From NCBI GenBank assembly GCA_030601885.1, contig JAUWAU010000014.1, positions 68,774 through 132,773 of the forward strand: a stretch of DNA of 64,000 nt. The letters are read 5' to 3'. The notes under the pieces are model-generated. The model was not told the origin of the DNA and did not search any database. It saw only the letters and a list, made by a program, of their open reading frames with translations. The translations under genes and the position numbers were made by a program. Numbering within the stretch: the first letter of the stretch is position 1; each line of letters begins with the position of its first letter. Shown in pieces: positions 3,253 through 19,001 of this stretch. The stretch is from Armatimonadota bacterium. Lineage in GTDB: Bacteria > Armatimonadota > Zipacnadia > JAUWAU01.

Positions 3253-3894
3253 TCAGCGCCGGCCGGGGCGGTCCGCCTTGCGCGCCCGTTCTCTCGCGTC
3301 CTGGTCGCTATCGTCTTCGGCTTGCTCCTCGTCAGACTCCAGGTGCGGCGCCAGGATGCGCGCATAGTCGTTGATCATCTCGTAGTAATGCCCATGTCGG
3401 GAGAGCACGTAGAACTGATAGAGGACGCCGAGCACGATGAGCATCATGCCCTGTCCGAGAGTGCCGCCCAGGAGGACATCGCCGATGGCGGCCACACCGA
3501 TCCCAGCGCCCAGCACCGAGACCGCTGACGCCGTCTTCAGCACCCGCGCCCGAACGAATGCCCCGTGAGGGTTCTCCGGCGTCTCGAGGGCCCCCGTCGC
3601 CCTCTGTTCCTCCGCTGCCGCAGCCAGTCGCGCCGCTACCCGGGCGAGCCGCTCCGGGTTCAGCGCATAGCCGTCAATGGCGAAGCCCAGCAGGAAGAAG
3701 CCCGCAGCGATGGCGAGGAACAACTCCAGGACGTTCTCGACTTGGATCTCTGACAGCTCTCGGGGCGGAACGGAGCGGCCCGCGATGACGGTGAGCACCA
3801 GTGCGGCGACGATGGGGATGACGCCCCAGTAGAGCCACCGATGTACGATCAGTCGTTTTGCCGTGCCGGCATCAATAATGGCCTCTTCGGACAT
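3253..3894 (-). CDS. Hypothetical integral membrane protein (about 4 TM)
   Basis: Hydrophobic segments in ORF 3253..4236; the promoter at 3950-3978 means the real start is downstream of it (ATG 3894 or 3909). Confidence 0.75.
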   Translation of the reverse strand: MSEEAIIDAGTAKRLIVHRWLYWGVIPIVAALVLTVIAGRSVPPRELSEIQVENVLELFLAIAAGFFLLGFAIDGYALNPERLARVAARLAAAAEEQRATGALETPENPHGAFVRARVLKTASAVSVLGAGIGVAAIGDVLLGGTLGQGMMLIVLGVLYQFYVLSRHGHYYEMINDYARILAPHLESDEEQAEDDSDQDARERARKADRPGRR

Positions 3895-3949
3895 CACAGA
3901 GGCCACCATCCCGGACATTGATATTGTGTCATCGGCCTGAATCGGGGCG

Positions 3950-4272: not shown

Positions 4273-5325
4273 TCAGATGCGCGATAGCAGCGCAGCGAGG
4301 CGCGCATCCCAGACAGCGCCCCTGAGCGTATTGGTCAGTTGCCGCAGCGCCAGTTCCATTCTCACCCACGTGGCGGCGTCAATGCCGCGCTTGCCTTCTA
4401 TCTGTGCGCGATACTGGGCGACCTGCGGGCGGTAGGCCTCGATGCGCTTGCCGAGCTCCCTGGCCGCTGCCGCATCACGCTCCTGCCGACGAGCTTCCTC
4501 GAGCTGCGCCAGGAGCGCGTCCAGGTCCGCCAATGCCTGCTGTGCGAGCGCCCGATAGGGTGTCTCCGAGAAGCCTCCCGGGCCATAGATGCGCAGCGGG
4601 CCGGTGCGGTGGCCCTTCCGGAACTCTTCGCCGAGCTGCCCGAGTTGCTCCGCCGTCGGAGAGAGCACCAAGTGGGCGAATCGCATCGGATCGTGGAAGT
4701 TGGCCTTGGTCTGGGACCAGTTCGTCCATTGCCGAGGGCCGCCGACCTCGCGGTCGCGGCACACGTTGAAGCCGAGCACTGTCCCAGGCCGCGGACTCAC
4801 CTCCAGATCCGCCCAGGGGATGGCCAGCTCGAGCGACCACTCGGTATCGCCGATGCGCACCTTCGCCCTTGCGCCGCTGTTCCACGAGGCGTCTTTCACC
4901 CGCGAGTCGTAGAGCCCCCCGGCCGCGCTGACGGCGAACTGATAGTACAGCTCGTGGTCGTGCGCCGGGTCAAGGAAGAATTCCAGCGCCTCGTGATGGA
5001 ATACTTGGCCATCGTCCCGGGCGGTTCGCAGCGGCGCCAGCTCTTGCGCCAGCGGCTCATCGCACACCACGCCGAAGTACAGCCGCTGCTGGTCGTAAAC
5101 GGCGCGAAAGGAGGTCTGCACGGGCGCCAGTGTCGGCTCGTCGTAGAAGGTGAAGCCGCTGACGAGCGGGGCGTTCTTCCAGCAGGCATCATCCAGCACC
5201 CCGTCGAGCCTTGGCGCCGCCACGGCCTTGGCGCATGGATACACATGGACGGGATAGTCATCTTGCGCCGTGCAAACGGACGCGGCGAGTGCGAGAAGTG
5301 GTGCGACAAGACATCCTGTGCGCAT
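4273..5325 (-). CDS. Secreted CBM9/DOMON-like sugar-binding domain protein
   Basis: Signal peptide MRTGCLVAPLLALAASVCTAQ; P.LDG.LDD..W, YD...LYFGV.C.EP, E.F.DP, W..E.AIPW, GFNVCR motifs; RBS GGAGG. Confidence 0.8.
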   Translation of the reverse strand: MRTGCLVAPLLALAASVCTAQDDYPVHVYPCAKAVAAPRLDGVLDDACWKNAPLVSGFTFYDEPTLAPVQTSFRAVYDQQRLYFGVVCDEPLAQELAPLRTARDDGQVFHHEALEFFLDPAHDHELYYQFAVSAAGGLYDSRVKDASWNSGARAKVRIGDTEWSLELAIPWADLEVSPRPGTVLGFNVCRDREVGGPRQWTNWSQTKANFHDPMRFAHLVLSPTAEQLGQLGEEFRKGHRTGPLRIYGPGGFSETPYRALAQQALADLDALLAQLEEARRQERDAAAARELGKRIEAYRPQVAQYRAQIEGKRGIDAATWVRMELALRQLTNTLRGAVWDARLAALLSRI

Positions 5326-5394
5326 TGGCTTTCCACCTCCCCGTGCCAAGCCCGGCCCCACAAACGCCGTCCCGGCCAGGCGTGACGCGGACAG

Positions 5395-5409
5395 ATTGGT
5401 CCGATCACT
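5395..5409. promoter_or_regulatory. Possible GntR/FadR-family operator (ATTGGTCCGATCACT)
   Basis: Imperfect TGGT-N3-A(C/T)CA palindrome in the divergent intergenic region; resemblance only. Confidence 0.3.
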
Positions 5410-5633
5410 CGTCTACACCTTCGAACCGACAGGCATTCCGACCTGCCCGATGTCCCCGGTTCGCCGGCACCGCGCGCCATGGAGCTGGGCGAGACCCCGC
5501 GCCGGTTGGCGGCTCTTGCGCTAACGAGAAGGGAAAGAGCATGCCTCCGGCGCAAGAGAGCCGCGGGACAACCAAAGCTCGGCGGCATCGTCCGACGCAG
5601 GTGCCGTGAGCGACGCTGGGAAGTGGTGCAGCC

Positions 5634-6536
5634 ATGGTAAACTACACTCTACACCGCGACATCGTGTACAAGCATGCCGACGACGTGGACATCGCCCTGG
5701 ACGTCTACGAGCCGCCCGGCGAGGCGCCCCGCCCGGCGATGCTCTACTTCCACGGCGGAGCGTTGATGCGCGGCAGCAAACGGATGAACGACATGCACCG
5801 CGATAGGTTCATCAACTGGGGATATGCGCTTGTATCGGCCAACTACCGCCTCGCGCCGGAAGCGAAGTGGCCCGCTTTCCGGGACGACATGCTCGACGCT
5901 CACCGCTGGGTGCTGAATAACGGCGCCGAGTACAACATTGATCCGCAGCGGATCGGCGTTTTCGGCGATTCTGCCGGCGGCTACCTATCGCTGTTGCTCG
6001 GCGCGCTCGCCCGGCCTCGGCCGCGCGTCGTGGTACCGTTCTCCGGGTACGGCGACGTGGCCGGGCCCTGGTACAGTGAGCCGGATGCGTTCTATCTGAG
6101 CCGCAAGAGCGAAGATCCGGACAAGGTGCGCAAGTCCATCAGCGCGACGGTGCTCACCGAGTGCGCCGATGCGCTGAAGGGCGCCTTCTATCGCTACTGC
6201 CGGCAGCACGGCCTGTGGCCGAAAGAGGTCATAGGATTCCATCCGTCGGAGCGCCCCGACATCTTCGAGCAGGCCTGCCCCGAGCGCCTCGTCACGCCGG
6301 ACTACCCGCCCACCTTCCTGATGCACGGCACGAACGACACCGATGTGCCTTTTGCGCGCGCCGAGAGCATGTACGACGCGCTCCAGCGCAATGGCGTCGA
6401 ATCGGCCCTTGCTGCCATCGAGGGCGGCCCCCACGGCTGCATCCACAAGCAGGTGAACTGGCCGGGCCCGGACGAGCCGCAAGTCAGCGCCGCCCTCAAC
6501 GACCTCCGTGAATTCTTAGAAAGCCACCTGGCATAG
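5634..6536 (+). CDS. Alpha/beta hydrolase (esterase/lipase, HSL-like)
   Basis: HGG oxyanion motif, YRLAPE, nucleophile GDSAGG, HGTNDTDVP, GPHG. Confidence 0.9.
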   Translation: MVNYTLHRDIVYKHADDVDIALDVYEPPGEAPRPAMLYFHGGALMRGSKRMNDMHRDRFINWGYALVSANYRLAPEAKWPAFRDDMLDAHRWVLNNGAEYNIDPQRIGVFGDSAGGYLSLLLGALARPRPRVVVPFSGYGDVAGPWYSEPDAFYLSRKSEDPDKVRKSISATVLTECADALKGAFYRYCRQHGLWPKEVIGFHPSERPDIFEQACPERLVTPDYPPTFLMHGTNDTDVPFARAESMYDALQRNGVESALAAIEGGPHGCIHKQVNWPGPDEPQVSAALNDLREFLESHLA

Positions 6537-6585: not shown

Positions 6586-7851
6586 GTGGAGTTCGACCAG
6601 ATGATTGAATCGCTCGACCTGCGAGACCACGAGGAGGTGTTGCGCCCCGGATGGAAGGCCTCCCAGGAGTCGCTTCCTCCCGATGCGCTTCGGTTTCTCG
6701 ACGGCGATTTCTTCGCCGAAGCCTGTCGTATGGTCAGCCTCAGCGAGGACGCCCGGCCATCTCTGCAGACGACGGCGGACCAGATCGAGCAGAACCCGTC
6801 GCTTAGAAGTCTGGCGTGGCACTACCACCGCCTTCTGTTCACGAGCACTCCGGATACGCGCCCCGACGTGTTCTCGTGGCCCGCCCTGGAGAACGTGCTG
6901 GGCGATGCGGCGGGGACGTTCTATCTGATCGTTGCTCTATCGGGCTTGCCGGGGGCGCAGGCATTCCACACAGCCCGCGAGATCCCTGAGGACATATTGC
7001 GGGACACCTACGCGGACGCAGCTCTGTGGGCCAACGAATGGCACAAGGCGCACGGGGTTTGGGGGATGGAGAGGAGAATAGTACGCTGGGTCACCAATCA
7101 CTTCGTTGGCGATCTGTATCGGCTGAATCGGCTCCAGTTCATGCAACGGCCCTTCCGCGGGTCGCTGCAGGCGTTTCGTCACGTGGATACGGGCGAGGTG
7201 CTCGCCGTGGCCGAAGACGGCATCCGCTTTCGGTCAGACGGCCAAATGGACGGCGCGGGGGAGGTCTACGACCCGGAAGGAGCCTGGACGTCGCACCTGG
7301 AGGTCACCGAGGAGGGCGTCAGGGGCAATCCCCTCGATCCCGCCGGTAAGGCTGTCTCTTCGGAGGTGTTTCTGCCCGCTGATCGGTGGAAGCCGGCGCT
7401 GAGGCGCGGCGACCCCATGCTGGAGATGCACATCCCAGCGAACGGCCCCATGGCCTTCGATGCCTGTGGCGACTCGCTCCGCCGCGCGCTGGGGTTCTTC
7501 CCGCGCTACTTCCCCGATCGCCCCTTCCTGGGTTTCTGCTGCACGTCCTGGACGCTCGACACACAGCTCTGCGACCTGCTGCCGCCCTCGTCTAACCTGG
7601 TGCGCTTCATGCGGGAGTTCCACTGCTACCCGATCCTCACCAGTGGCCGGCAGACCTTCGAGCGCGCCTTCGGCGGCGTTCCCGACGACGTACGGGACCT
7701 GCCGCGCGATACCGCCCTGCGGCGGCTGCTGGTGGATCATCTGCTGGCCGGCGGGCACACGCGGTCCGGGGGGATATTCCTGCTGACCGAGGACCTCCAC
7801 TGGGGGACGCAGGTATACCTCACGCAGCAGCGAAGCCTGCCCATCGCATGA
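6586..7851 (+). CDS. Acyltransferase-domain protein (N-acyltransferase N-terminal plus GNAT-like C-terminal)
   Basis: LYRLNRLQF, L.MHIP..GP, F.C.SW.LD, LP..SN...F motifs typical of this family. Confidence 0.7.
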   Translation: MEFDQMIESLDLRDHEEVLRPGWKASQESLPPDALRFLDGDFFAEACRMVSLSEDARPSLQTTADQIEQNPSLRSLAWHYHRLLFTSTPDTRPDVFSWPALENVLGDAAGTFYLIVALSGLPGAQAFHTAREIPEDILRDTYADAALWANEWHKAHGVWGMERRIVRWVTNHFVGDLYRLNRLQFMQRPFRGSLQAFRHVDTGEVLAVAEDGIRFRSDGQMDGAGEVYDPEGAWTSHLEVTEEGVRGNPLDPAGKAVSSEVFLPADRWKPALRRGDPMLEMHIPANGPMAFDACGDSLRRALGFFPRYFPDRPFLGFCCTSWTLDTQLCDLLPPSSNLVRFMREFHCYPILTSGRQTFERAFGGVPDDVRDLPRDTALRRLLVDHLLAGGHTRSGGIFLLTEDLHWGTQVYLTQQRSLPIA

Positions 7852-8025
7852 CGTTCGGGAATTCCCCGAATTATGGGTATACCCCCACCAGACACGGGAC
7901 ACATGTCCCACATAGCACACGACGCCGGCCGTGGCGGAACCCGCCACCCGCGTCCAACGTTCCGCTCGACGAAGGGAGGCCGTCGCGCGGCCGCCACTAT
8001 GCGGGCCGCCTAACGGGATACGCCA

Positions 8026-8751
8026 ATGTCCGAGAACAAGCCCAGGCGTTCGTTCTTTGCGGCCATACGGAGCTACATCCTCGCCGGGGTCTTCACCGCC
8101 ATACCCATCTGGGTCACGTGGCTCATATTCGCGTTCCTCGTGCAGCTCCTGCGGGACGTGGGCGCTCCGCCCATTGCCCGCGTGGCCGAGGCGCTGCGCC
8201 CAGTGGCCCCGGCCATTTCGGCGCCGCTGGAGGACCCGTGGCTGCAGTCGGCCGTGGCCGTGGTGCTCGTCCTCGTGGGCTTCCTTCTGCTCGGCTGGTT
8301 CTCATCGCGAGTGATCGGCCAGCGCTTCGTGGCCGCCTTCGATTCCCTCATGGGCCGCATCCCGCTGGTGGAGTTGATCTATGGCGCCCTCAGAAAGCTC
8401 CTGACCACCGTGCAGCAGAAGCCCGAGGGAGTTCAGCGTGTCGTCCTCATCGATTTCCCTTCGCCCGAGATGAAAACGGTCGGGCTGGTCACCCGCACCC
8501 TCGTCGATCAGGACACCGGCCGCAAACTGGCCGCCGTCTACGTTCCGACGACCCCCAATCCCACCTCCGGCTACCTCGAGATCGTCCCGCTGGACCGGGT
8601 GACGTCCACGAACTGGACGGTTGACGAGGCCATGGAGTTCGTGGTCACCGGCGGCGCCGTCGCCCCGCCGACGATGAACTACGACAGGAGCGCCAACGCC
8701 GCGACGGAGCCCACCGCGGAAGGGACAGACGAATCAGCCAGCAACGAGTGA
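8026..8751 (+). CDS. DUF502 domain membrane protein
   Basis: Two TM segments, RIPLV..IY, VVLIDFP, VYVPTTPNPTSGYL, AMEFVVTGG. Confidence 0.9.
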   Translation: MSENKPRRSFFAAIRSYILAGVFTAIPIWVTWLIFAFLVQLLRDVGAPPIARVAEALRPVAPAISAPLEDPWLQSAVAVVLVLVGFLLLGWFSSRVIGQRFVAAFDSLMGRIPLVELIYGALRKLLTTVQQKPEGVQRVVLIDFPSPEMKTVGLVTRTLVDQDTGRKLAAVYVPTTPNPTSGYLEIVPLDRVTSTNWTVDEAMEFVVTGGAVAPPTMNYDRSANAATEPTAEGTDESASNE

Positions 8752-10100: not shown

Positions 10101-12419
10101 ATTATCTCACTCAACGACCACATCCGACCCATCCCTCCAGAAGGCGTACCCTCATCCCCCGCCTGGGACGCCTCCGGCGCCGCCCGCTGCGTCGCCTGGC
10201 GATCGTACCGCCCCGGCTCCGAATCCCTCATGGCGCAGGCCGGCGAAGAGCCCCGCGAGCTGGTCACCGCGGACGCCATCGGCGACCCAGCAGTCCTGAC
10301 GATCGCCCCGCAAACATGGTGGATCGCCGCCCCGATCTACGAGGGCGGCGCCTGGCATTTCCGCCGATTCCGGATTGGGCCTTCGGGCTTGGAGTCACTA
10401 CCCGATGCCCCCGTCGAGCGCCTCACCCCCGGATCGCCCGCCACACCTCCCCCCCCGCTTGCGGGGGAGATAGGGGGGGTAATCCTCCAGCGCAGCCGCG
10501 ACGGCATCGTTTACCTCGCTCTCACCCTCGCCCACGGGCAGACATCCCGCGCTCACCTCTTCCGCTGCGACGACGCCTCTGCCGAGCCGGTGCTGACCAC
10601 CCCGGAAGGCCTGCACGCGCGCCGCCCGGCGGTCGTCGTGCTCGGCGACCAGCCCATCCTCGCCTACGACGCCTGGGACGGTCAGGCCTACCATGTCTAC
10701 GTGCAATGCGGCGACCAGCGCGTCAAATTGTCGGAATCGCCCGGCTGGCACATTCGGCCCGACATAGTGGCGGATGGGCAGCGTACCGTATGGGTCACGT
10801 GGGTGCGGACGACGGACGTGATGAACCCCGAGGGCGTCGTGGACTCCCGCTGTGAGGTCATGGCGGGGTGCCTGCGACTGAACGGCGACCGGCCGCACCT
10901 CCAGCCCATCGGCGCGGTAGACGACATGTCTCACGGCCTCCTCGACCTCTCGCCCAACCCGCGCGGCGTCTGGGGCTACCTCGGACGCCGCCGGCATCCT
11001 ATGCTGCTCCGAACTCCGGCCGGCGTCCTGGTGCTCTGGGAGCAGAAGCGCGTCCACGACCGCAAGACCCGCGAGAACGTCGGCGTCTTGTGGGGTCGGC
11101 GACTTGCCGAGTCGGGCATCGGCGAGGCTCAGGCGCTCGCGGCAGGCGGCATGGCCTACACGGTACCTGGGTCTCGCGTAGCCGACGACGACCGCTTCGA
11201 GATCTGCTGCCTCGAGGGCTGGCACGTGGACGAGCGCCACATCACCTTCCAACAGGCCTCATCAACTCCCCTGGACGAGCGCCGCCTTCCGCGCGATGCC
11301 TGGCGCGGCTGGAAGTCCATCACCTTGCCCCGCGATCCCGTTGCTCCCCGCCTGCGGGGGGGAGACAGGGGGGGTACCGACCGCCCATCAATCACGCTCA
11401 ACGGCACGACCTACCACCTCTACTGGCTGGACCCGCACTGCCACACGTGCATTTCGGCCGACGCCGAGGGGGAGCTGGACAAGCTGTACCGATACGCGCG
11501 GCACAAGGCGGGGCTCGATGCCGTGGTCATGAGCGACAACGACTACTACCTGCTGCCGCTGACCCGCAGCGAGTGGCGCCAGGTCTGCGCGGCGGCCGAC
11601 GCCTTCAACGAGCCCGGCGCCTTCGTCGCCCTCCCCGGCTACGAGTGGACCTGCCGGCGCGAGTTCGAGAGCAAACTTCCGCCCGATCATCGCACCATCA
11701 TCCTCCCCGGCCCCACGGACGACATCGTCCGGTGGAACGAGATGGACGGCGACTACCGCGCGCTGTACGAGTTCACGCAGCGCCACGGCGGTATCGTCCA
11801 CGCTCATCATCAAGGCTGGCGGCTGCTCGGCAATCTGGTGGAAGCGAACATAGAGGCGACATCCTCGTGGGATTTCTATCTCGAGGCGGATGTCTCATGT
11901 TTCCACGAACATCTGCTCAAGGGGCACAAGATCGGGGTGTTCGGGGGCAGCGATTGCCATCGCCGCAACCCGGGCCTCGGCGGCGCCCTCACCGGCGTGT
12001 GGGCGGAGTCCCTGACGCGCGAGGGCATCCTCGAAGCCCTGCGCAGCCATCGGTGCTACGCAACCAGCGGTCAGCGGGTGATGATCGACTTCCGGGCAAA
12101 CGGCAAGCCCATGGGAGCCGTCGTGGAGGCCGGGGAGGTGGATCTGAGCGTCGATGTGGTCTCGCCGATTCCCATCCTGTCGGTGGAGCTCGTCCGCGAC
12201 GGCAAGGTCGCCAGGCGGTGGGATGCCAGGAGGCAGACGGAGTTCACGGCTGGGCCCCATGAGTCGCCTCCGAGGGGCGACCACTTCTACTACATCCGAG
12301 TCGTCCTCGAAGGCCCGATCTACCTGCGGCGCGAGGGGATGCCGGCCAATCTCATGCCCGCCTTCGGCCCCCGCGCCTGGTCGTCGCCGATCTGGGTGAC
12401 CCGAGCCAACGACGGTTGA
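10101..12419 (+). CDS. PHP/DUF3604-like (CehA/McbA-type) metallohydrolase with N-terminal beta-propeller-like region; probable ATT start
   Basis: DPHCHT..S.DA.G, SDND, GYEWT, G.SD.H, GALTGVWA, AWSSPIWV; frame open upstream of ATG 10230 to ATT 10101, 5 nt after AGGAGG. Confidence 0.8.
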   Translation: MISLNDHIRPIPPEGVPSSPAWDASGAARCVAWRSYRPGSESLMAQAGEEPRELVTADAIGDPAVLTIAPQTWWIAAPIYEGGAWHFRRFRIGPSGLESLPDAPVERLTPGSPATPPPPLAGEIGGVILQRSRDGIVYLALTLAHGQTSRAHLFRCDDASAEPVLTTPEGLHARRPAVVVLGDQPILAYDAWDGQAYHVYVQCGDQRVKLSESPGWHIRPDIVADGQRTVWVTWVRTTDVMNPEGVVDSRCEVMAGCLRLNGDRPHLQPIGAVDDMSHGLLDLSPNPRGVWGYLGRRRHPMLLRTPAGVLVLWEQKRVHDRKTRENVGVLWGRRLAESGIGEAQALAAGGMAYTVPGSRVADDDRFEICCLEGWHVDERHITFQQASSTPLDERRLPRDAWRGWKSITLPRDPVAPRLRGGDRGGTDRPSITLNGTTYHLYWLDPHCHTCISADAEGELDKLYRYARHKAGLDAVVMSDNDYYLLPLTRSEWRQVCAAADAFNEPGAFVALPGYEWTCRREFESKLPPDHRTIILPGPTDDIVRWNEMDGDYRALYEFTQRHGGIVHAHHQGWRLLGNLVEANIEATSSWDFYLEADVSCFHEHLLKGHKIGVFGGSDCHRRNPGLGGALTGVWAESLTREGILEALRSHRCYATSGQRVMIDFRANGKPMGAVVEAGEVDLSVDVVSPIPILSVELVRDGKVARRWDARRQTEFTAGPHESPPRGDHFYYIRVVLEGPIYLRREGMPANLMPAFGPRAWSSPIWVTRANDG
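10445..10480. repeat. Intragenic palindromic repeat, copy 1
   Basis: CCCCCCCCGCTTGCGGGGGAGATAGGGGGGGT; near-identical to 11344-11375. Confidence 0.75.
11344..11375. repeat. Intragenic palindromic repeat, copy 2
   Basis: CTCCCCGCCTGCGGGGGGGAGACAGGGGGGGT; in frame within the CDS. Confidence 0.75.
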
Positions 12420-12449
12420 CGGGGCAGTGTAGACAGTTGCCCACAGGCC

Positions 12450-12614
12450 TCATTGCCTCTTGCGCGAGACCTTCTCGCCCCGAACCCCCGACGCCGTCCG
12501 AGAATATCCGTTAACACTATCTCGCCACACCTCCGCATGCTCCACCTGCCTGTTCAGCCGATCCAGCACGTGCCGGTAGCGCTGCTCGTCGATCAGCCCC
12601 CGCAGCGACCGCCA
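12450..12614 (-). pseudogene. aguA: C-terminal remnant of GH67 alpha-glucuronidase
   Basis: Manual translation WRSLRGLIDEQRYRHVLDRLNRQVEHAEVWRDSVNGYSRTASGVRGEK matches the GH67 C-terminal consensus W.SL.G.IDE.RY..VL.RL..Q..HA..WRD..N.YF...SGI; no start codon. Confidence 0.8.
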
Positions 12615-12615
12615 G

Positions 12616-13470
12616 TCATCGCGCAATTGCTTCGCCCACAGGCTGCAACAGACAGAAAACGTTGTACTGGTTGAAGAAATACTCCATCTGAAAGTGAATC
12701 GTTCGCCCGTCCGGCAGTCTTGCCGCCTGCTTTGCGGTCACACTCTCGGCAATATCACGATCCGCCCTGGCAGCCTCGATGACATAGGGATTGTCCACGT
12801 TGCTTCTTAGCCGCGCAAAATAGAGACGTGAGAACGTCGGCGACGGCACGCTGTACCTGACATCCCATCGTGGCTCCTGGCCGATGTCGATCCGCTTGTC
12901 GTCGGCTACGGGGGTGTACACCACCAGCATGCATGGCCGGAGGTTCTTTTCCACGAACCGCCGCGCCGTCGCTTCATATGAGGCCAGATACTTGTGGGCC
13001 AGTTGCTTCACAGTCGCCGCGCAGATCGGTGAGCTGTTGGCCTCCAACAAGAACCGGACCCCGTGGAATAGCAGATCGGCGGCGAACGCGTTTGCCCCCT
13101 GCTCCCGAGCGCTGCGCGCAAAATGGCTTAGATCGCAGGCCGTGCAGAGCACGATGGACTCAACCTGATCCGGCAGCACGTAATGGGCGATTTCGTGAAA
13201 GGTGCTCAACCGAGCCCGGGGCGCGCTTAACTCCCGATCGGTAGCTATCACCCGCTCCGGAAAGGAAATGAGCGCCCGCGGGCGCTCGCCGCTGGCACTC
13301 ACTGCCTCGGGAAGATCAGCCGCGAAGTTCAGAGACAAGTGGGTAAGGCCCAACAGCTCGAGTATGGGGGCTGGGTTGACGGCGTCGCCTTCCTCCTGAC
13401 CACTAGCTCGGAGTAGGTAGGAGGCCAGTTCGTACGGGGGTATCTCACGGAAACTAGGCTGCACCTGCAT
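12616..13470 (-). CDS. ImmA/IrrE (COG2856) family zinc metallo-endopeptidase, IrrE/CapP-like architecture
   Basis: R.R.STFHEIAHY (HEXXH), EQGANAFAADLLF, HTH-like LAHKYLASYEATARR, and a C-terminal domain of about 110 aa where IrrE/CapP carry a GAF-like domain. Confidence 0.88.
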   Translation of the reverse strand: MQVQPSFREIPPYELASYLLRASGQEEGDAVNPAPILELLGLTHLSLNFAADLPEAVSASGERPRALISFPERVIATDRELSAPRARLSTFHEIAHYVLPDQVESIVLCTACDLSHFARSAREQGANAFAADLLFHGVRFLLEANSSPICAATVKQLAHKYLASYEATARRFVEKNLRPCMLVVYTPVADDKRIDIGQEPRWDVRYSVPSPTFSRLYFARLRSNVDNPYVIEAARADRDIAESVTAKQAARLPDGRTIHFQMEYFFNQYNVFCLLQPVGEAIAR

Positions 13471-14044
13471 CCTCGCTCTCTTCGCGCTCCCTTAGCAACG
13501 CCTGCAGCCGGCGGCGAATCTTCCGGACCGCGTCCGCCGACGGCAGCTCACCATGCGCCGCCATGGCTAGTTCGTCTTGCGCCTTCAACGTGGGGAGATG
13601 CTCGATGTACGCAGCCACCTGCTCTTCGCGATCAGGCTCTCGTTGCGCCTCTAGCTCGGCAAACAAGCCCGGGTGCTCTGCGGCTAGGCGGATGAGGTTG
13701 TCCATCGACTTGTTCTGCACCGAAAGGCCGACTTCCCACCGGGCGTAACTCTTGTCCCCCACTCCGAGGAGCCGCGCCATCTCTACCTGGCTCAGCCCCG
13801 TGCGCTCGCGGACGGCACGCACCTCAGCCGGACTGAGCAGTCCCTGTATCCTGTATTGCTCAGCCTCGATGCGATCGCTAAGCTCCGGAGACAGAATCTC
13901 CTCGCCGCAGGCATCGCAGGCCTCCCACACGGCATCAGCGAACCCCGACTGCTGGGCAGCGGAACCCTCTGGCCACTCAAAGATATACTCCCCTCGACGC
14001 TCCTCGAGCACTTTCGCGCCACAGATGGGACAAACGCGTGCCAT
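13454..14044 (-). CDS. MqsA-family antitoxin (Zn finger plus XRE HTH) with C-terminal extension
   Basis: CPICG...CDACGEEI Zn ribbon; LLSPAEVRAVRERTGLSQVEMARLLGVGDKSYARWEVG HTH; about 65 extra aa containing ELAMAAHG; RBS AAGGAGG. Confidence 0.9.
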   Translation of the reverse strand: MARVCPICGAKVLEERRGEYIFEWPEGSAAQQSGFADAVWEACDACGEEILSPELSDRIEAEQYRIQGLLSPAEVRAVRERTGLSQVEMARLLGVGDKSYARWEVGLSVQNKSMDNLIRLAAEHPGLFAELEAQREPDREEQVAAYIEHLPTLKAQDELAMAAHGELPSADAVRKIRRRLQALLREREESEDAGAA

Positions 14045-14060
14045 GGCTGCCTCCTTTTGC

Positions 14061-14396
14061 TTAGCTGGACGGCCGCCCCTGACGCTCGTGCACGGAGATG
14101 AGTATCAGGACCAGCCCCCAGCGCCGCTTGTCAATCCCTACCTTCACGAAAAGGTCTTCAGCGTCGATCGTTGGGTACACCTCGTACGCGGGCCTCCCAA
14201 TGTGTCCGCGCGCAGTGTCCGTGATGGTCTCCATGACAGCCGCGTCGCCGTCAATATAGTCGCAAATAGCCTCGCAAACACCAGCCATGGTTAGCCGGAG
14301 CCTCGTCATGTCCTGGCGCGCGGTGTTGGTCGGTCTGACGGCTTGGGGATCTCCTGCCAGCTTGCGAATGAGAGCGATGCGGCTCTTGTCCCGCAG
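14061..14396 (-). CDS. MqsR-like (RelE-fold) toxin; true start uncertain, upstream of ATG 14309
   Basis: In-frame extension IALIRKLAGDPQAVRPTNTARQDMTRLRLTMAGVCEAI aligns by eye with MqsR LSQVKKLVNAGQVRTTRSALLNADELGLDFDGMCNVI; YEVYP...DLFVKV...ILISVHE C-terminus; directly upstream of the mqsA-like gene. Confidence 0.75.
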   Translation of the reverse strand: MRDKSRIALIRKLAGDPQAVRPTNTARQDMTRLRLTMAGVCEAICDYIDGDAAVMETITDTARGHIGRPAYEVYPTIDAEDLFVKVGIDKRRWGLVLILISVHERQGRPSS

Positions 14397-14415
14397 TTCC
14401 CACCGCTTACGGATT

Positions 14416-14454
14416 TTGACAACCTCATTATACCATTGCAGGATGTTTTGTCAA
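14416..14454 (-). promoter_or_regulatory. Sigma-70 promoter TTGACA-N16-TATAAT (extended -10 TG) bracketed by TTGACAA/TTGTCAA inverted repeat
   Basis: -35 at 14449-14454, -10 at 14427-14432; palindromic arms 14416-14422 and 14448-14454 (likely antitoxin operator). Confidence 0.8.
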
Positions 14455-14482
14455 GAGGATTTAGTATCATTTGATACTCAAA

Positions 14483-14632
14483 TTAGCGACCCAGCAGCCC
14501 CGTCAGCCCCCGCACCAACTCCTCCGCGGCCGCATCGAGAACCGGGCTGTCCTCAGCCCACAGGCCAGGGCCGACATATGTTAAGGCTGCAGCAAGTATC
14601 AGTGTCGCTCTCAGCAAGTGCTTGTTCACCAC
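14483..14632 (-). pseudogene. aguA: N-terminal remnant of GH67 alpha-glucuronidase (signal peptide plus start of N-domain)
   Basis: MNKHLLRATLILAAALTYVGPGLWAED-SPVLDAAAEELVRGLTGLLGR*; resembles GH67 S..L.AA.EEL.RGL.GLLG with the usual GY.LWLRY segment after AED missing. Confidence 0.65.
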
Positions 14633-14705
14633 CCGGCAAGTACCTGTCACTGTCTCAGCAAGTGCCTGATGAGAGCAGAGGCCGCATGCTCCCGCAGCCC
14701 CGAGA

Positions 14706-15977
14706 TCAGCCTTCCAGCATGACCCTCTCCACCTTGAGCAGCGCCTTCGCCACGTCCCTCGCATCGGCCGCCCGCCAGAATTCGGTCACCCCGAGGCGGA
14801 AGTAGCGTTCCACCAATGCATCGATGTTGTCGTGCGGGTAGGACTCCGGATCCAGGTGCGGCAAATGCGGGAACTGGCTCCAGGGCCACTCGCTATCGGC
14901 GAAGGTCGCCCGCTCGGCGATCCAGTGCTGGCGGTAGATGATGTGCTCGTAGTCGAAGCCGAGCGGGATGCCCTCGGCTCGCACTGCCTCGTAGGCCTCT
15001 CGCTTTGTCCACGGTCCCTCGTAGCCAATGAAAACGAACCACCACGCGGGGCGGCAGTCGTACGACGGCCAGATTACCCTGAAGCACCGCGAGCCCGCCA
15101 GCGCCGTACGCAGCGAGCTCACCACCTGGTGACGCCGCATGGCGATCCGCCTCATCTTCTTGAGCTGCGCCCGGCCGATGGCCCCCTGGAGCTGGGTCAT
15201 GCGGTAGTTGTTGCCGAGCATCAAGATGCTTGGGCAGTCGGAGTTGAACGGCTTGCCGCGGTCGGCGAACCGCTTGGCGTTCCAGTACCACTCCTCGTTG
15301 TCGGTGAGCACCATCCCGCCCTGGCCGCCGGCGGTGGTGTGCTTGCCGCTCATGAGGCTGAAGGCGCTGATGTCGGCGAGGCTCCCCGCGATGCGTCCCT
15401 TGTAGAGTGCACCGTGGGCCTGGGCGGCGTCCTCGATCACCGGGATGCGATGCTTTCGCGCAAGCCGCATTATGCGGTCCATGTCGGCGGGGATGCCGGC
15501 GATGTGGCCGACGATGATGGCCCCCGTGTGCTCGCACATGAGCGGCTCGATGGTGTGGGCCGAGACCTGGAACGTGTCGAGCTCGTGGTCGGCGAACACC
15601 GGGATGCAGTTGTTCCAGAGGATCGGGGCGACGGCGCCGGGGTCGGTGATGGTGTTGCAGATGATCTCCCTCCCCGGCGGGAGCCGCAGGGCGCTGAGGG
15701 CTGTGTGCACGGCGGCGGTTCCCGAGCTGACCGCCGTGGCGAAGCGGACGCCGCAGACACGGGCGAACTCCTTTTCGTACAGATCAACGTCCTCGGTTCC
15801 ATAGCGATCGAAGCCGCCACCGCTCTTCATGGCCCCCTTGACAACCCTCTGAACGGCGGCCCATTCTTCTTTTCCGATGTGGCGGCGGGCGGGGAATGGC
15901 TTCGTTCGAACCGGCTTCCCGCCGGCGATCGCGAGCGAACTCGAAGAGGATTTCCTTCGCTTCATGCCGTGGAGCAT
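14706..15977 (-). CDS. DegT/DnrJ/EryC1/StrS family PLP-dependent aminotransferase
   Basis: LAI.GGKPVR, SSGTAAVH.AL, IEDAAQAHGA, FSL..GKH...G.GG, G.NYRM. Confidence 0.93.
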   Translation of the reverse strand: MLHGMKRRKSSSSSLAIAGGKPVRTKPFPARRHIGKEEWAAVQRVVKGAMKSGGGFDRYGTEDVDLYEKEFARVCGVRFATAVSSGTAAVHTALSALRLPPGREIICNTITDPGAVAPILWNNCIPVFADHELDTFQVSAHTIEPLMCEHTGAIIVGHIAGIPADMDRIMRLARKHRIPVIEDAAQAHGALYKGRIAGSLADISAFSLMSGKHTTAGGQGGMVLTDNEEWYWNAKRFADRGKPFNSDCPSILMLGNNYRMTQLQGAIGRAQLKKMRRIAMRRHQVVSSLRTALAGSRCFRVIWPSYDCRPAWWFVFIGYEGPWTKREAYEAVRAEGIPLGFDYEHIIYRQHWIAERATFADSEWPWSQFPHLPHLDPESYPHDNIDALVERYFRLGVTEFWRAADARDVAKALLKVERVMLEG

Positions 15978-16159
15978 CTCCCTTGCAGCGGGTGTGTCTA
16001 CACTGGCGTGCCTCTTGCCCGTCAGTGCGTTTCTCTCCTCCGAGGCGGCCTCAGGTGAGGAGAAGCTGCGTATCCGGCGAAGTGCTCAGAGCAGCCGTCA
16101 TGTGGCGGGGCCACACTCTGAAACCATGAAGATGGGCCCGGCGGGGGGGGCTGGGGGCC

Positions 16160-16183
16160 GCCGGAGCAAGCTGCTCCGGCTAC
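16160..16183 (-). repeat. GTAG-type REP-like palindrome
   Basis: Minus strand GTAGCCGGAGCAGCTTGCTCCGGC: 8-bp stem preceded by GTAG. Confidence 0.55.
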
Positions 16184-16258
16184 AACGGGTGGGCCTGCGG
16201 CCGAAATCTTCGGAGCAGTGAAGTTGTCGCGACACACAGGAATTCGGAGGCGAACGCC

Positions 16259-18093: not shown

Positions 18094-18573
18094 CTACCTC
18101 TTATACGTGGCCCAAGGATTCTGTTTCTTTCGTTTGCCTGCAAGTTCGGCTGCTTGCCCTATCCACCTCGCCAGACTGTCTTTGCTGGTATACTTGTATG
18201 CTTTGAAACCATTGGCTCTGATCTTCGGCGGAATCGCTCCCGGAGAACCAGTGTTCCCATTCTGGTCCTTTAGGTGATGAATCCGGACCGCCACAAGGCC
18301 GTTTCCTCGTTCCAAAGACTTGTCGATTTCGTAATTGATGTACTTCCTATCCGCAGTGCCGCGTGTAACACATACGACTGTAACGGATGTGTTCCGAAGC
18401 GCTTTGTCAATCATCGCTTTGATCTGCTTGTCTCCTTTCTTCTTGGCCTCTTCCCACAAGGAAGCATCTTGAAATCCCGCCGCGGCGGTGCCGATGATGT
18501 TGGGGATGCTTCGGACTTGGTTGACCTTCCACACATGCTTGTAATGGAAGCTGAAGAATACGCGTCGAGCCAT
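18094..18573 (-). CDS. TIR-domain protein, Thoeris ThsB/DUF1863-like
   Basis: MARRVFFSFHY..W.VNQVR, GF.DASLWEEAK, TSVTVV, T..RKYINYEI..S..RGNGL with catalytic Glu; RBS GGAGGAGG. Confidence 0.9.
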   Translation of the reverse strand: MARRVFFSFHYKHVWKVNQVRSIPNIIGTAAAGFQDASLWEEAKKKGDKQIKAMIDKALRNTSVTVVCVTRGTADRKYINYEIDKSLERGNGLVAVRIHHLKDQNGNTGSPGAIPPKIRANGFKAYKYTSKDSLARWIGQAAELAGKRKKQNPWATYKR

Positions 18574-18590
18574 CGTCCTCCTCCTTCCGA

Positions 18591-19001
18591 TTAGCGCCAC
18601 GCCGCTGCGACGAAGGCCGTCCCCACAATGATGGCAATGTAGAGCCAGGCAATCGTCGGGGACAAGCACGAGGCCAACCACCGCACCTGGCTCCGGTAGG
18701 GCGATGTGTCCATCGTGAAGGGGTCGGTCTCCATCTCAGACAGCGCGGCGAGACGCACAGCCTTATACAGCTTCCGAAAGAGGCGCTCCTGTCTCAGGTA
18801 GTAGCCGTCTAGCCCCCAGAACACCATCGTGGGGACAAGCGCCACCACCATGTACTGCGGGCATGCATCCCTGCCCCCCAGCGCAAGGATCGCGGCTGCC
18901 ACAGTAACAGCCCAGCCCTTGTACACGAAGGAGTTCTGTGCAAGGCGGCCGATCACGGTTTGGATGAGCTCCAGGTGCCGCATCCTTGCCTCGATCATCA
19001 T
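18591..19001 (-). CDS. Small multi-TM membrane protein, putative TIR-associated effector
   Basis: HLELIQ.VI.RLA.NSF..KGW, FW.LDGYYL.QERLFR.LY; three hydrophobic helices; ends 17 nt upstream of the TIR start. Confidence 0.8.
   Translation of the reverse strand: MMIEARMRHLELIQTVIGRLAQNSFVYKGWAVTVAAAILALGGRDACPQYMVVALVPTMVFWGLDGYYLRQERLFRKLYKAVRLAALSEMETDPFTMDTSPYRSQVRWLASCLSPTIAWLYIAIIVGTAFVAAAWR

Follow-up and report, generated by a model that had tools for sequence, protein, structure and literature searches.

Here, we propose that a module of three genes, an MqsRA-like toxin-antitoxin (TA) pair accompanied by an M78 metallopeptidase gene, was acquired by an Armatimonadota bacterium and very probably now occupies the middle of a dead GH67 alpha-glucuronidase gene, between a DegT-family aminotransferase gene and a convergent metallohydrolase gene. 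The DNA analysed, which we call the window, is a stretch of 64,000 nucleotides (nt) from assembly GCA_030601885.1 (contig JAUWAU010000014.1, positions 68,774 to 132,773 of the forward strand). An earlier note, made from the letters of the window, had described a TA-peptidase cassette flanked by two stubs of one broken GH67 gene. That observation is confirmed and its interpretation is largely right, with the amendment that the junctions now visible are products of continued erosion. The locus is laid out as follows, in window positions and in the order in which the GH67 gene and the module are read (ORF, open reading frame; aa, amino acids):

14706 to 15977, minus strand: DegT-family aminotransferase gene (PF01041, E 3e-66).
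14592 to 14668, no strand: three imperfect repeats of 22 nt in which the N-terminal stub has its 5' end, found by repeat search; a hot spot of insertions and deletions (indels) between strains.
14483 to 14632, minus strand: N-terminal stub, an ORF of 49 codons directly after the DegT stop; remnant of the GH67 N-terminus (a start resembling a signal peptide, AED, then SPVLDAAAEELVRGLTGLLGR, stop), from comparison with GH67 ORFs and with contig L058.
14486 to 14495, minus strand: the one copy left of the 10-nt direct repeat GCTGGGTCGC, scar of a 351-nt deletion, from comparison with L058.
14464 to 14477, minus strand: palindrome GTATCAAATGATAC, presumed operator and left end of the conserved unit, repeated upstream of other such trios of genes.
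14427 to 14454, minus strand: cassette promoter TTGACA, 16 nt, TGgTATAAT (12 of 12 consensus positions plus the TG extension).
14061 to 14414, minus strand: full-length frame of the toxin gene, 117 codons, predicted MqsR fold; the gene is called at 82 aa (14309 to 14061).
13454 to 14044, minus strand: MqsA-family antitoxin/repressor gene, 196 aa, with a CxxC...CxxC zinc ribbon and a helix-turn-helix (HTH) domain (TIGR03830).
12616 to 13470, minus strand: M78 (ImmA/IrrE/CapP-like) metallopeptidase gene, 284 aa, HEIAH motif (PF06114).
12614 to 12625, minus strand: right junction zone, from the end of cassette homology to the start of GH67 C-terminal homology in the alignments.
12450 to 12614, minus strand: GH67 C-terminal remnant, 54 codons and a stop (PF07477).
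10230 to 12419, convergent: DUF3604/CehA-McbA-type metallohydrolase gene, 729 aa, its stop 30 nt from the end of the C-terminal stub.

The C-terminal stub matches Glyco_hydro_67C (PF07477) over positions 12450-12626 of the minus strand at E 2.2e-12 (47.4 bits, cut-off 27), its residues 1-52 corresponding to model positions 169-220 of 223. Seven GH67-length ORFs (719-909 aa) were also retrieved from other phylum genomes, and the stub aligns with the C-terminus of every one (31-47% identity). The earlier note had read 12450-12614 as the final 54 codons of a GH67 gene, abutting the peptidase stop, and this holds: the stub begins two bases past that stop (12618-12616), its first clearly aligned codon being the W at 12614, and the GH67 alignments begin between L (12626) and this W. 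Of 400 other phylum genomes, 15 have stub-like matches (E<=0.01), and a search of a collection of 5.8 billion proteins returned no match, which is a weak negative. At the other side of the junction the window peptidase ends in ...GEAIAR*, with which its closest homologue (P0050, 78% identical) has ...GEA(V/I) in common. The idea that the peptidase lost its native stop at the junction was dropped; in this family the C-terminal tail is anywhere from 0 to about 25 aa long.

The N-terminal stub is identified through a longer allele. L058, a 2,075-nt metagenome contig of the Joint Genome Institute (JGI) found with the DegT protein as query, is 97-99% identical to the window (99% in the DegT protein) and has, between what are positions 14486 and 14495 of the window, 351 bases more. 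These are flanked by two copies of GCTGGGTCGC (L058:780-789 and 1141-1150) and start after the first. In L058 the frame of the stub continues (…GLLGRTPRRTDSVTRAGSIVIGT…), and L058:643-882 matches Glyco_hydro_67N (PF03648) at E 6.9e-6 (26.7 bits, cut-off 24.3; model positions 28-73 of 120), with a second, collinear GH67N piece (RRIGDEGYVIRSVELDG) found by blastx in another frame. The extra bases are GH67-derived at least up to L058:1012; the last ~140 nt (L058:1013-1150) have no Pfam match and a collinear GH67 blastx alignment at only E~9. Because this allele passes the PF03648 threshold, the N-terminal stub is a GH67 remnant. The GH67-like stub that the earlier note saw at 14483-14632 is thus borne out via L058 and not by the stub alone, and the comparison of both stubs with GH67 that it had suggested came out positive for the C-terminal stub, negative for the N-terminal stub by itself and positive for its L058 allele. 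A further lead, not proof, comes from blastp: the last ~20 residues of the stub (AAAEELVRGLTGLLGR) can be aligned with the corresponding N-terminal part of six of the seven GH67 ORFs, the best match being 67% over 18 aa at E ~0.01 in a tiny database. The two GH67N pieces of L058 are separated by a dispersed repeat of ~50 nt (L058:865-919), of which the window has no copy. This repeat has internal hairpins and the core GCGAGCCACAGGTGCTCTGAGGACCT.CGGTCCTTGCTCGCCTACAG, and it recurs in 15 copies in the window's own genome (E<=1e-6; for example C58:34680-34727, C55:10384-10431 and C69:83747-83789), groups of which share longer flanks.

Both stubs lie on one strand and in the order, N then C, that a GH67 gene would have, and the three cassette genes are the sole genes between them. 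The N-terminal stub stops (14485-14483) 29 nt upstream of the promoter, where the earlier note had estimated about 30, and five bases separate it from the palindrome. Since nothing in the window's own genome (6.8 Mb, 95% complete) matches the GH67 catalytic domain (PF07488), the body of the gene has been lost and not rearranged, and the locus is a pseudogene remnant that encodes no GH67 enzyme, its catalytic domain being absent. What is gone, about 1.7 kb, comprises the end of the N domain, the entire catalytic domain and three quarters of the C domain. The earlier note had most of a ~2-kb gene replaced by ~1.9 kb of cassette: the amounts stand, the module being ~1.85 kb, and a clean one-step replacement does not, given that the left junction was made by a later 351-nt deletion.

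The evidence for that deletion, and for the age of the arrangement, comes from strains sampled elsewhere. For window positions 11800-15300, 16 public runs are listed, of which 14 hold some of the region; four runs from four studies (X1, X2, X3 and X14) were compared, each covering the whole of it at >=85% likeness, and X1 may be the source sample. X2 presents hydrolase, C-terminal stub, cassette, N-terminal stub and DegT on a single contig of 13,343 nt, while the contigs of X14 and X3, and L058 as well, tile the same gene order. Strains sharing the arrangement diverge at ~1-5% of bases (about 95-99% identity). Because the order recurs in three further studies and in L058, the arrangement can be neither an artefact of assembly nor very recent. 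Substitutions in the runs were read from 40 of the 269 listed differences, and among the four runs no indels were reported in the antitoxin or peptidase genes. We had considered whether the cassette might be younger than its flanks, being less diverged, and dropped this: the cassette differs by 1.1% (against L058) and the tryptophanyl-tRNA synthetase region by 1.4% (against L062, another metagenome contig), with divergence between strains higher, at ~3%, only for DegT.

Because L058 keeps 351 further bases at the left junction, and these continue the GH67N homology, the junction in the window is not the original one; it was made by a deletion between the two copies of GCTGGGTCGC. In X3 the contigs are interrupted just at 14486/14495, leaving 100 and 258 letters unaligned, and X3 probably carries the same 351-nt-longer allele. 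Other losses mark the remnant. GH67N model positions 1-27, which follow the signal peptide, are absent between AED and SPVL in every allele seen, and the GYxLWLRY stretch present in all seven GH67 ORFs falls within this missing part of PF03648. The 5' end of the N-terminal stub exists in three alleles: the window form, one shorter by 44 nt (X2 and X14, which skip 14609-14652 with a 13-nt overlap) and one shorter by 75 nt (X3 and L058, which skip 14603-14677). In X14, the C-terminal stub has a 3-nt deletion at 12557. Taken together, the alleles compared here indicate that, after the event, the pseudogene kept shrinking through deletions between short direct repeats.

What, then, does the cassette encode? 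The antitoxin matches TIGR03830 (E 1.4e-25, 89.5 bits, cut-off 61.8) and PF15731 (E 4.2e-14, 53.2 bits, cut-off 30), along with the HTH family PF01381 (HTH_3). Its gene overlaps that of the peptidase, which matches PF06114 (E 2.5e-9, 37.4 bits, cut-off 22) and has the HExxH motif, as HEIAH, in its translation. PADLOC labels the peptidase capP (E 1.5e-18) and the antitoxin side capH (E 1.1e-4). The peptidase is single-copy in its own genome and has 201 homologues at E<=1e-20 in a large protein collection, the named ones from metagenome-assembled genomes of Planctomycetes and the nearest being P0050, as above, P0051 (72%) and P0052 (66%). Among 400 other genomes of the phylum sample no close relative was found, the five weak matches having 26-31% identity. 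In the promoter scan, two promoter-like sites were found where shuffled sequence leads one to expect 0.4 +/- 0.7.

The toxin belongs to a family with 48 representatives, mostly of 107-121 aa. An AlphaFold (AF2) model from 40 aligned sequences has a predicted local distance difference test score (pLDDT) of 92.7, and its first-ranked Foldseek match is E. coli MqsR (3hi2_B; probability 1.00, E 0.013). VIA-align superposes all 91 of 91 residues on 3hi2 with Z 10.2 and a root-mean-square deviation of 2.6; the next best match, among RelE/ParE toxins, has Z 6.7. On this model the toxin is predicted to be MqsR by fold, not a sequence-level member of the MqsR models.

In the same 40 aligned family sequences (profile A1), M1, S107 and H109 are each conserved in at least 90%, and it is at these places that the strains differ. 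Codon 1 of the window toxin is ATC, where L058 has ATG, and translation from the first ATG in the window (14309) would give 82 aa, without the first helix and strand of the fold. The L058 toxin has P where at least 90% of the 40 family members have H (H109P). X2 lacks 14069-14119, an in-frame loss of 51 nt that removes residues ~99-115, S107 and H109 included. Because three strains (window, L058 and X2) bear three different lesions, we infer that the toxin gene is decaying.

The same trio of genes occurs elsewhere. Two further copies (L063 and L064) came from a scan of a species-genome contig collection, and three (L081, L082 and L083) from a peptidase search of 99 genomes of one order, in which the peptidase has a patchy distribution, being carried by four of the 99 (G405 included). 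All five loci, each in a different context, hold a toxin-family ORF of 110-113 aa, an MqsA-like gene and the peptidase. Upstream of the trio, L064, L081 and L083 have the palindrome GTATCA(A/T)ATGATAC, exact or slightly changed, and L063 and L082 have a degenerate form. L081 and L082 share only 1,834 nt of DNA, at 84.6% identity, and the sharing stops at the peptidase stop codon. For L063, a relative (G412) retains the empty site, at which dprA and pheS converge and overlap; in L063 itself 2,049 nt replace 41 nt. In L064 the trio lies between transposase-like ORFs and its peptidase gene is split by a frameshift (L064:3128-3946, 5004-5840 and 6714-8069). In the window, G+C content at third codon positions (GC3) is 0.71-0.75 in the cassette genes against 0.83-0.88 in the neighbouring genes. 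The trio with its palindrome at other loci, the empty site and the GC3 values support the earlier note's view of the three genes as one acquired unit; as compared here, the stretch from palindrome to peptidase behaves as a discrete unit found at unrelated sites.

How such a unit came to be joined to the GH67 gene was sought at its ends. A 54-nt imperfect inverted repeat (3887-3941 and 5848-5902) stands on either side of the L063 insert; its score is 22, against 7.9 +/- 1.3 in shuffles, 0 of 2,000 of which reach that score. Because the repeat is of a family dispersed in its host genome, with five further copies there, it is not a property of the module. Flanking inverted repeats above the level of shuffles were found in none of the four other loci tested (L064, L081, L082 and L083), and terminal inverted repeats as a general feature of the module were accordingly rejected, L063 alone having them, and neither the other four loci nor the window. 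Inspecting the window junctions for microhomology, as the earlier note had proposed, proved uninformative. The 7-mer GGTCGCT present at both junctions is at chance level, since 57% of random pairs of 101-nt windows taken 1.9 kb apart from the same genome share a 7-mer or longer. A 12-mer, TGCGGGGGCTGA, occurs in both stubs (14503-14514 and 12593-12604) in the same frame (V/L-R-G-L), with an empirical p of ~0.002 for two 101-nt windows. Because neither copy is at a junction, both being part of native GH67 codons, we read it as a codon-level coincidence. Were the two copies to recombine, the cassette would be cut out and the stubs joined in frame.

In light of these findings, how might the locus have arisen? 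The starting state would be a GH67 alpha-glucuronidase gene between the DegT gene and the convergent metallohydrolase gene, into which the module arrived by horizontal transfer. Joining would have been by recombinase-independent recombination, either illegitimate or guided by short homology, and the body of the gene may have been replaced at once, or the module inserted first and the rest removed by later deletions. The module, comprising the palindromic operator, a sigma-70 promoter and the three genes, would have been retained as addictive or useful, while the dead DNA around it was lost up to its functional edges. By analogy with known systems, the antitoxin would bind the palindrome and neutralise the toxin, a putative MqsR-fold RNase, and the peptidase would cleave the HTH protein on a stress signal, like ImmA, IrrE and CapP.

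A number of results weigh against this account. By itself, the N-terminal stub (14483-14632) matches no Pfam family at E<=1, gives only noise against NCBIfam and has no match in the 5.8-billion-protein collection (again a weak negative); in the 400 other phylum genomes it has six weak matches (E 0.0067-0.085), all in frames of 326-478 aa, which are not of GH67 size. The toxin matches no Pfam or NCBIfam family at E<=10, and its family profile A1 reaches MqsR of PDB at E 0.094 only; as for its decay, the ATC codon might still initiate translation. At the window cassette, no recombinase gene between the stubs, no terminal inverted or direct repeat at the cassette ends and no target duplication was found, just as the earlier note had reported no integrase, transposase or visible terminal repeats; no target duplication, att-like (attachment) site or meaningful microhomology at the junctions favours any specific joining mechanism. 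The pre-insertion state, a GH67 gene once intact at this site in the lineage, is our inference, and no relative shows an intact gene. The catalytic domain has no match in 41 genomes (the window's own and 40 relatives of the same class), and the intact aguA between DegT and hydrolase genes that the earlier note proposed looking for was not found in relatives. In the sole same-genus genome (G001; 760 contigs, 83% complete), the DegT orthologue (79%) has another ORF downstream, its contig ending ~240 nt past the orthologue inside that different ORF. For the hydrolase, searches of G001, G002 and G004 gave no close orthologue, the best match in G001 being 37%. Finally, the GC3 values of the stubs (0.70 and 0.78) are nearer to the cassette than to the neighbours, although with ~50 pseudogenic codons each this is a weak indication.

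The last of these points bear on the possibility that GH67 never worked in this lineage and that stub, cassette and stub were imported between DegT and hydrolase as one foreign piece, as the lack of the catalytic domain in the 40 relatives, the different gene in G001 and the cassette-like GC3 of the stubs would suggest. We consider this improbable. The genus is represented by that one fragmentary genome, short pseudogenic stubs make GC3 a poor guide, and the N-terminal stub directly follows the DegT stop while the C-terminal stub ends 30 nt from the hydrolase stop, as a resident gene would. In addition, the GH67 family is not foreign to the phylum, given the stub-like matches in 15 of 400 genomes and the seven fetched loci with GH67-like ORFs. 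The main alternative, less likely than recombinase-independent joining and still one to be taken seriously, is that the module came as cargo of a larger mobile element, such as a composite bounded by insertion sequences (IS), an integrative and conjugative element (ICE) or a prophage, which entered GH67 and was later deleted together with most of the gene. The transposase-like ORFs on either side of the L064 trio, the significant repeat of a dispersed family around the L063 insert and the deletions that trim the window locus to a few bases from the palindrome all agree with it. Against it, no remnant of a vehicle is visible, the extra bases of L058 being GH67-derived as far as L058:1012 and the ~140 nt beyond matching nothing tested; flanking inverted repeats are wanting in all four of the other loci and in the window; and the DNA shared by L081 and L082 ends at the peptidase stop codon.

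Two readings lie further out. An assembly chimera, or an N-terminal stub that is a chance look-alike, might be entertained in view of a 90-contig assembly with an estimated contamination of 6.2% and a stub that has no significant match alone; it is scarcely credible, being refuted by the same gene order in contigs of three further studies and the JGI contig, and by the longer allele passing the Pfam GH67N threshold. The other is that the unit from operator to stop is itself mobile and integrates without a recombinase gene, terminal repeat or target duplication, by an undescribed mechanism, which strikes us as very unlikely. Were it so, and we think it equally far-fetched in this more specific form, the module's own DNA-binding and peptidase pair or a host repair pathway, for instance, might do the joining, and the GH67 locus would be its footprint. 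In a milder version, the antitoxin-peptidase pair would persist as a regulator responding to stress, the toxin meanwhile being inactivated again and again. Our preferred reading, an acquired module joined by recombinase-independent recombination and a GH67 remnant that went on eroding around it, is the best one for the evidence as a whole.

We draw a distinction between this module and the systems it most resembles. Like E. coli MqsR/MqsA (YgiU/YgiT; PDB 3hi2), it has the toxin gene first, the MqsR fold in the toxin model, an MqsA-family antitoxin and an upstream palindrome; unlike it, there is an M78 peptidase gene overlapping the antitoxin gene, a toxin without Pfam or NCBIfam match and with 20% identity to MqsR in the structural alignment, and an antitoxin with a C-terminal extension of ~65 residues relative to the MqsA model. 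By this analogy, the module would be an MqsRA-like pair plus an M78 peptidase, with toxicity and neutralisation predicted. A three-component TA system made of a COG2856 Zn-protease, an Xre-type HTH protein and a RelE or PIN toxin has been predicted, with the protease fused to the HTH domain in over half of these systems (Makarova, Wolf and Koonin 2009, PMC2701414). The window module agrees with the type as outlined there in having a RelE-superfamily toxin, an HTH antitoxin and a COG2856/M78 protease in one operon, and departs from it in its separate 284-aa protease, its MqsA-type HTH protein with a zinc ribbon and its MqsR-like toxin.

Pairs of protease and repressor are likewise described as CapP/CapH (regulators of cyclic-oligonucleotide-based antiphage signalling systems, CBASS), ImmA/ImmR (ICEBs1) and IrrE/DdrO (Deinococcus) (Lau et al., bioRxiv 10.1101/2022.04.27.489752), and the NetFlax paper (PMC10440598) lends itself to the same peptidase/HTH parallel. 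In each of the three pairs, as in the window, an M78 HExxH peptidase gene lies beside an HTH repressor gene. The known pairs regulate other genes (for excision, repair or CBASS), whereas the only visible target in the window is the module's own TA operon. On the strength of this likeness, the peptidase may cleave the neighbouring HTH protein on a signal.

TA modules are frequent in integron and IS/MITE (miniature inverted-repeat transposable element) vehicles, and like integron cassettes or IS/MITE cargo the present module is a compact unit met in many contexts. It differs from an integron cassette in having no attC-like palindrome or integrase, GH67C codons within ~10 nt of the peptidase stop and, where such cassettes are promoterless, its own promoter matching 12 of 12 consensus positions. 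It differs from a transposon, IS or MITE in its want of a transposase, terminal inverted repeats and a target-site duplication; in four of the five other loci, too, no recombinase gene, terminal repeat or target duplication was found. As for the host gene, the stubs resemble GH67 alpha-glucuronidase (AguA) in matching PF03648 (via L058) and PF07477, in order and on one strand, and the window gene departs from AguA in lacking PF07488 and bearing several independent lesions.

Around the locus, some further features were seen. About 3.5 kb from the cassette, a gene for a ThsB-type TIR-domain protein (18094-18681, minus strand; PF08937, E 1.3e-21) has a GC3 of 0.61, far below its neighbours, and looks like another acquired defence-type gene. 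Relative to the window, L062 lacks ~115 nt at 16095-16209, between the DegT start and an FMN-reductase gene, with flanks that match the window, making this a strain-level indel. The DegT query has 17 matches in its own genome and 3-28 in each relative searched, and thus belongs to a large paralogous family of the lineage.

The event itself is of an ordinary kind and involves a known class of module, and it opens no new question; the movement of TA modules in the absence of recombinases is a long-standing puzzle, for which this locus offers no mechanistic footprint. The locus does define a rarely noted three-gene form of MqsRA with a separate M78 peptidase, of a type predicted in 2009. In addition, it is a clean example, dated by strains, of a selfish module embedding in a gene and of the erosion of the gene it destroyed: alleles from different samples show successive short-repeat deletions that stop at the functional edges of the module, and a toxin that was hit independently in three strains.

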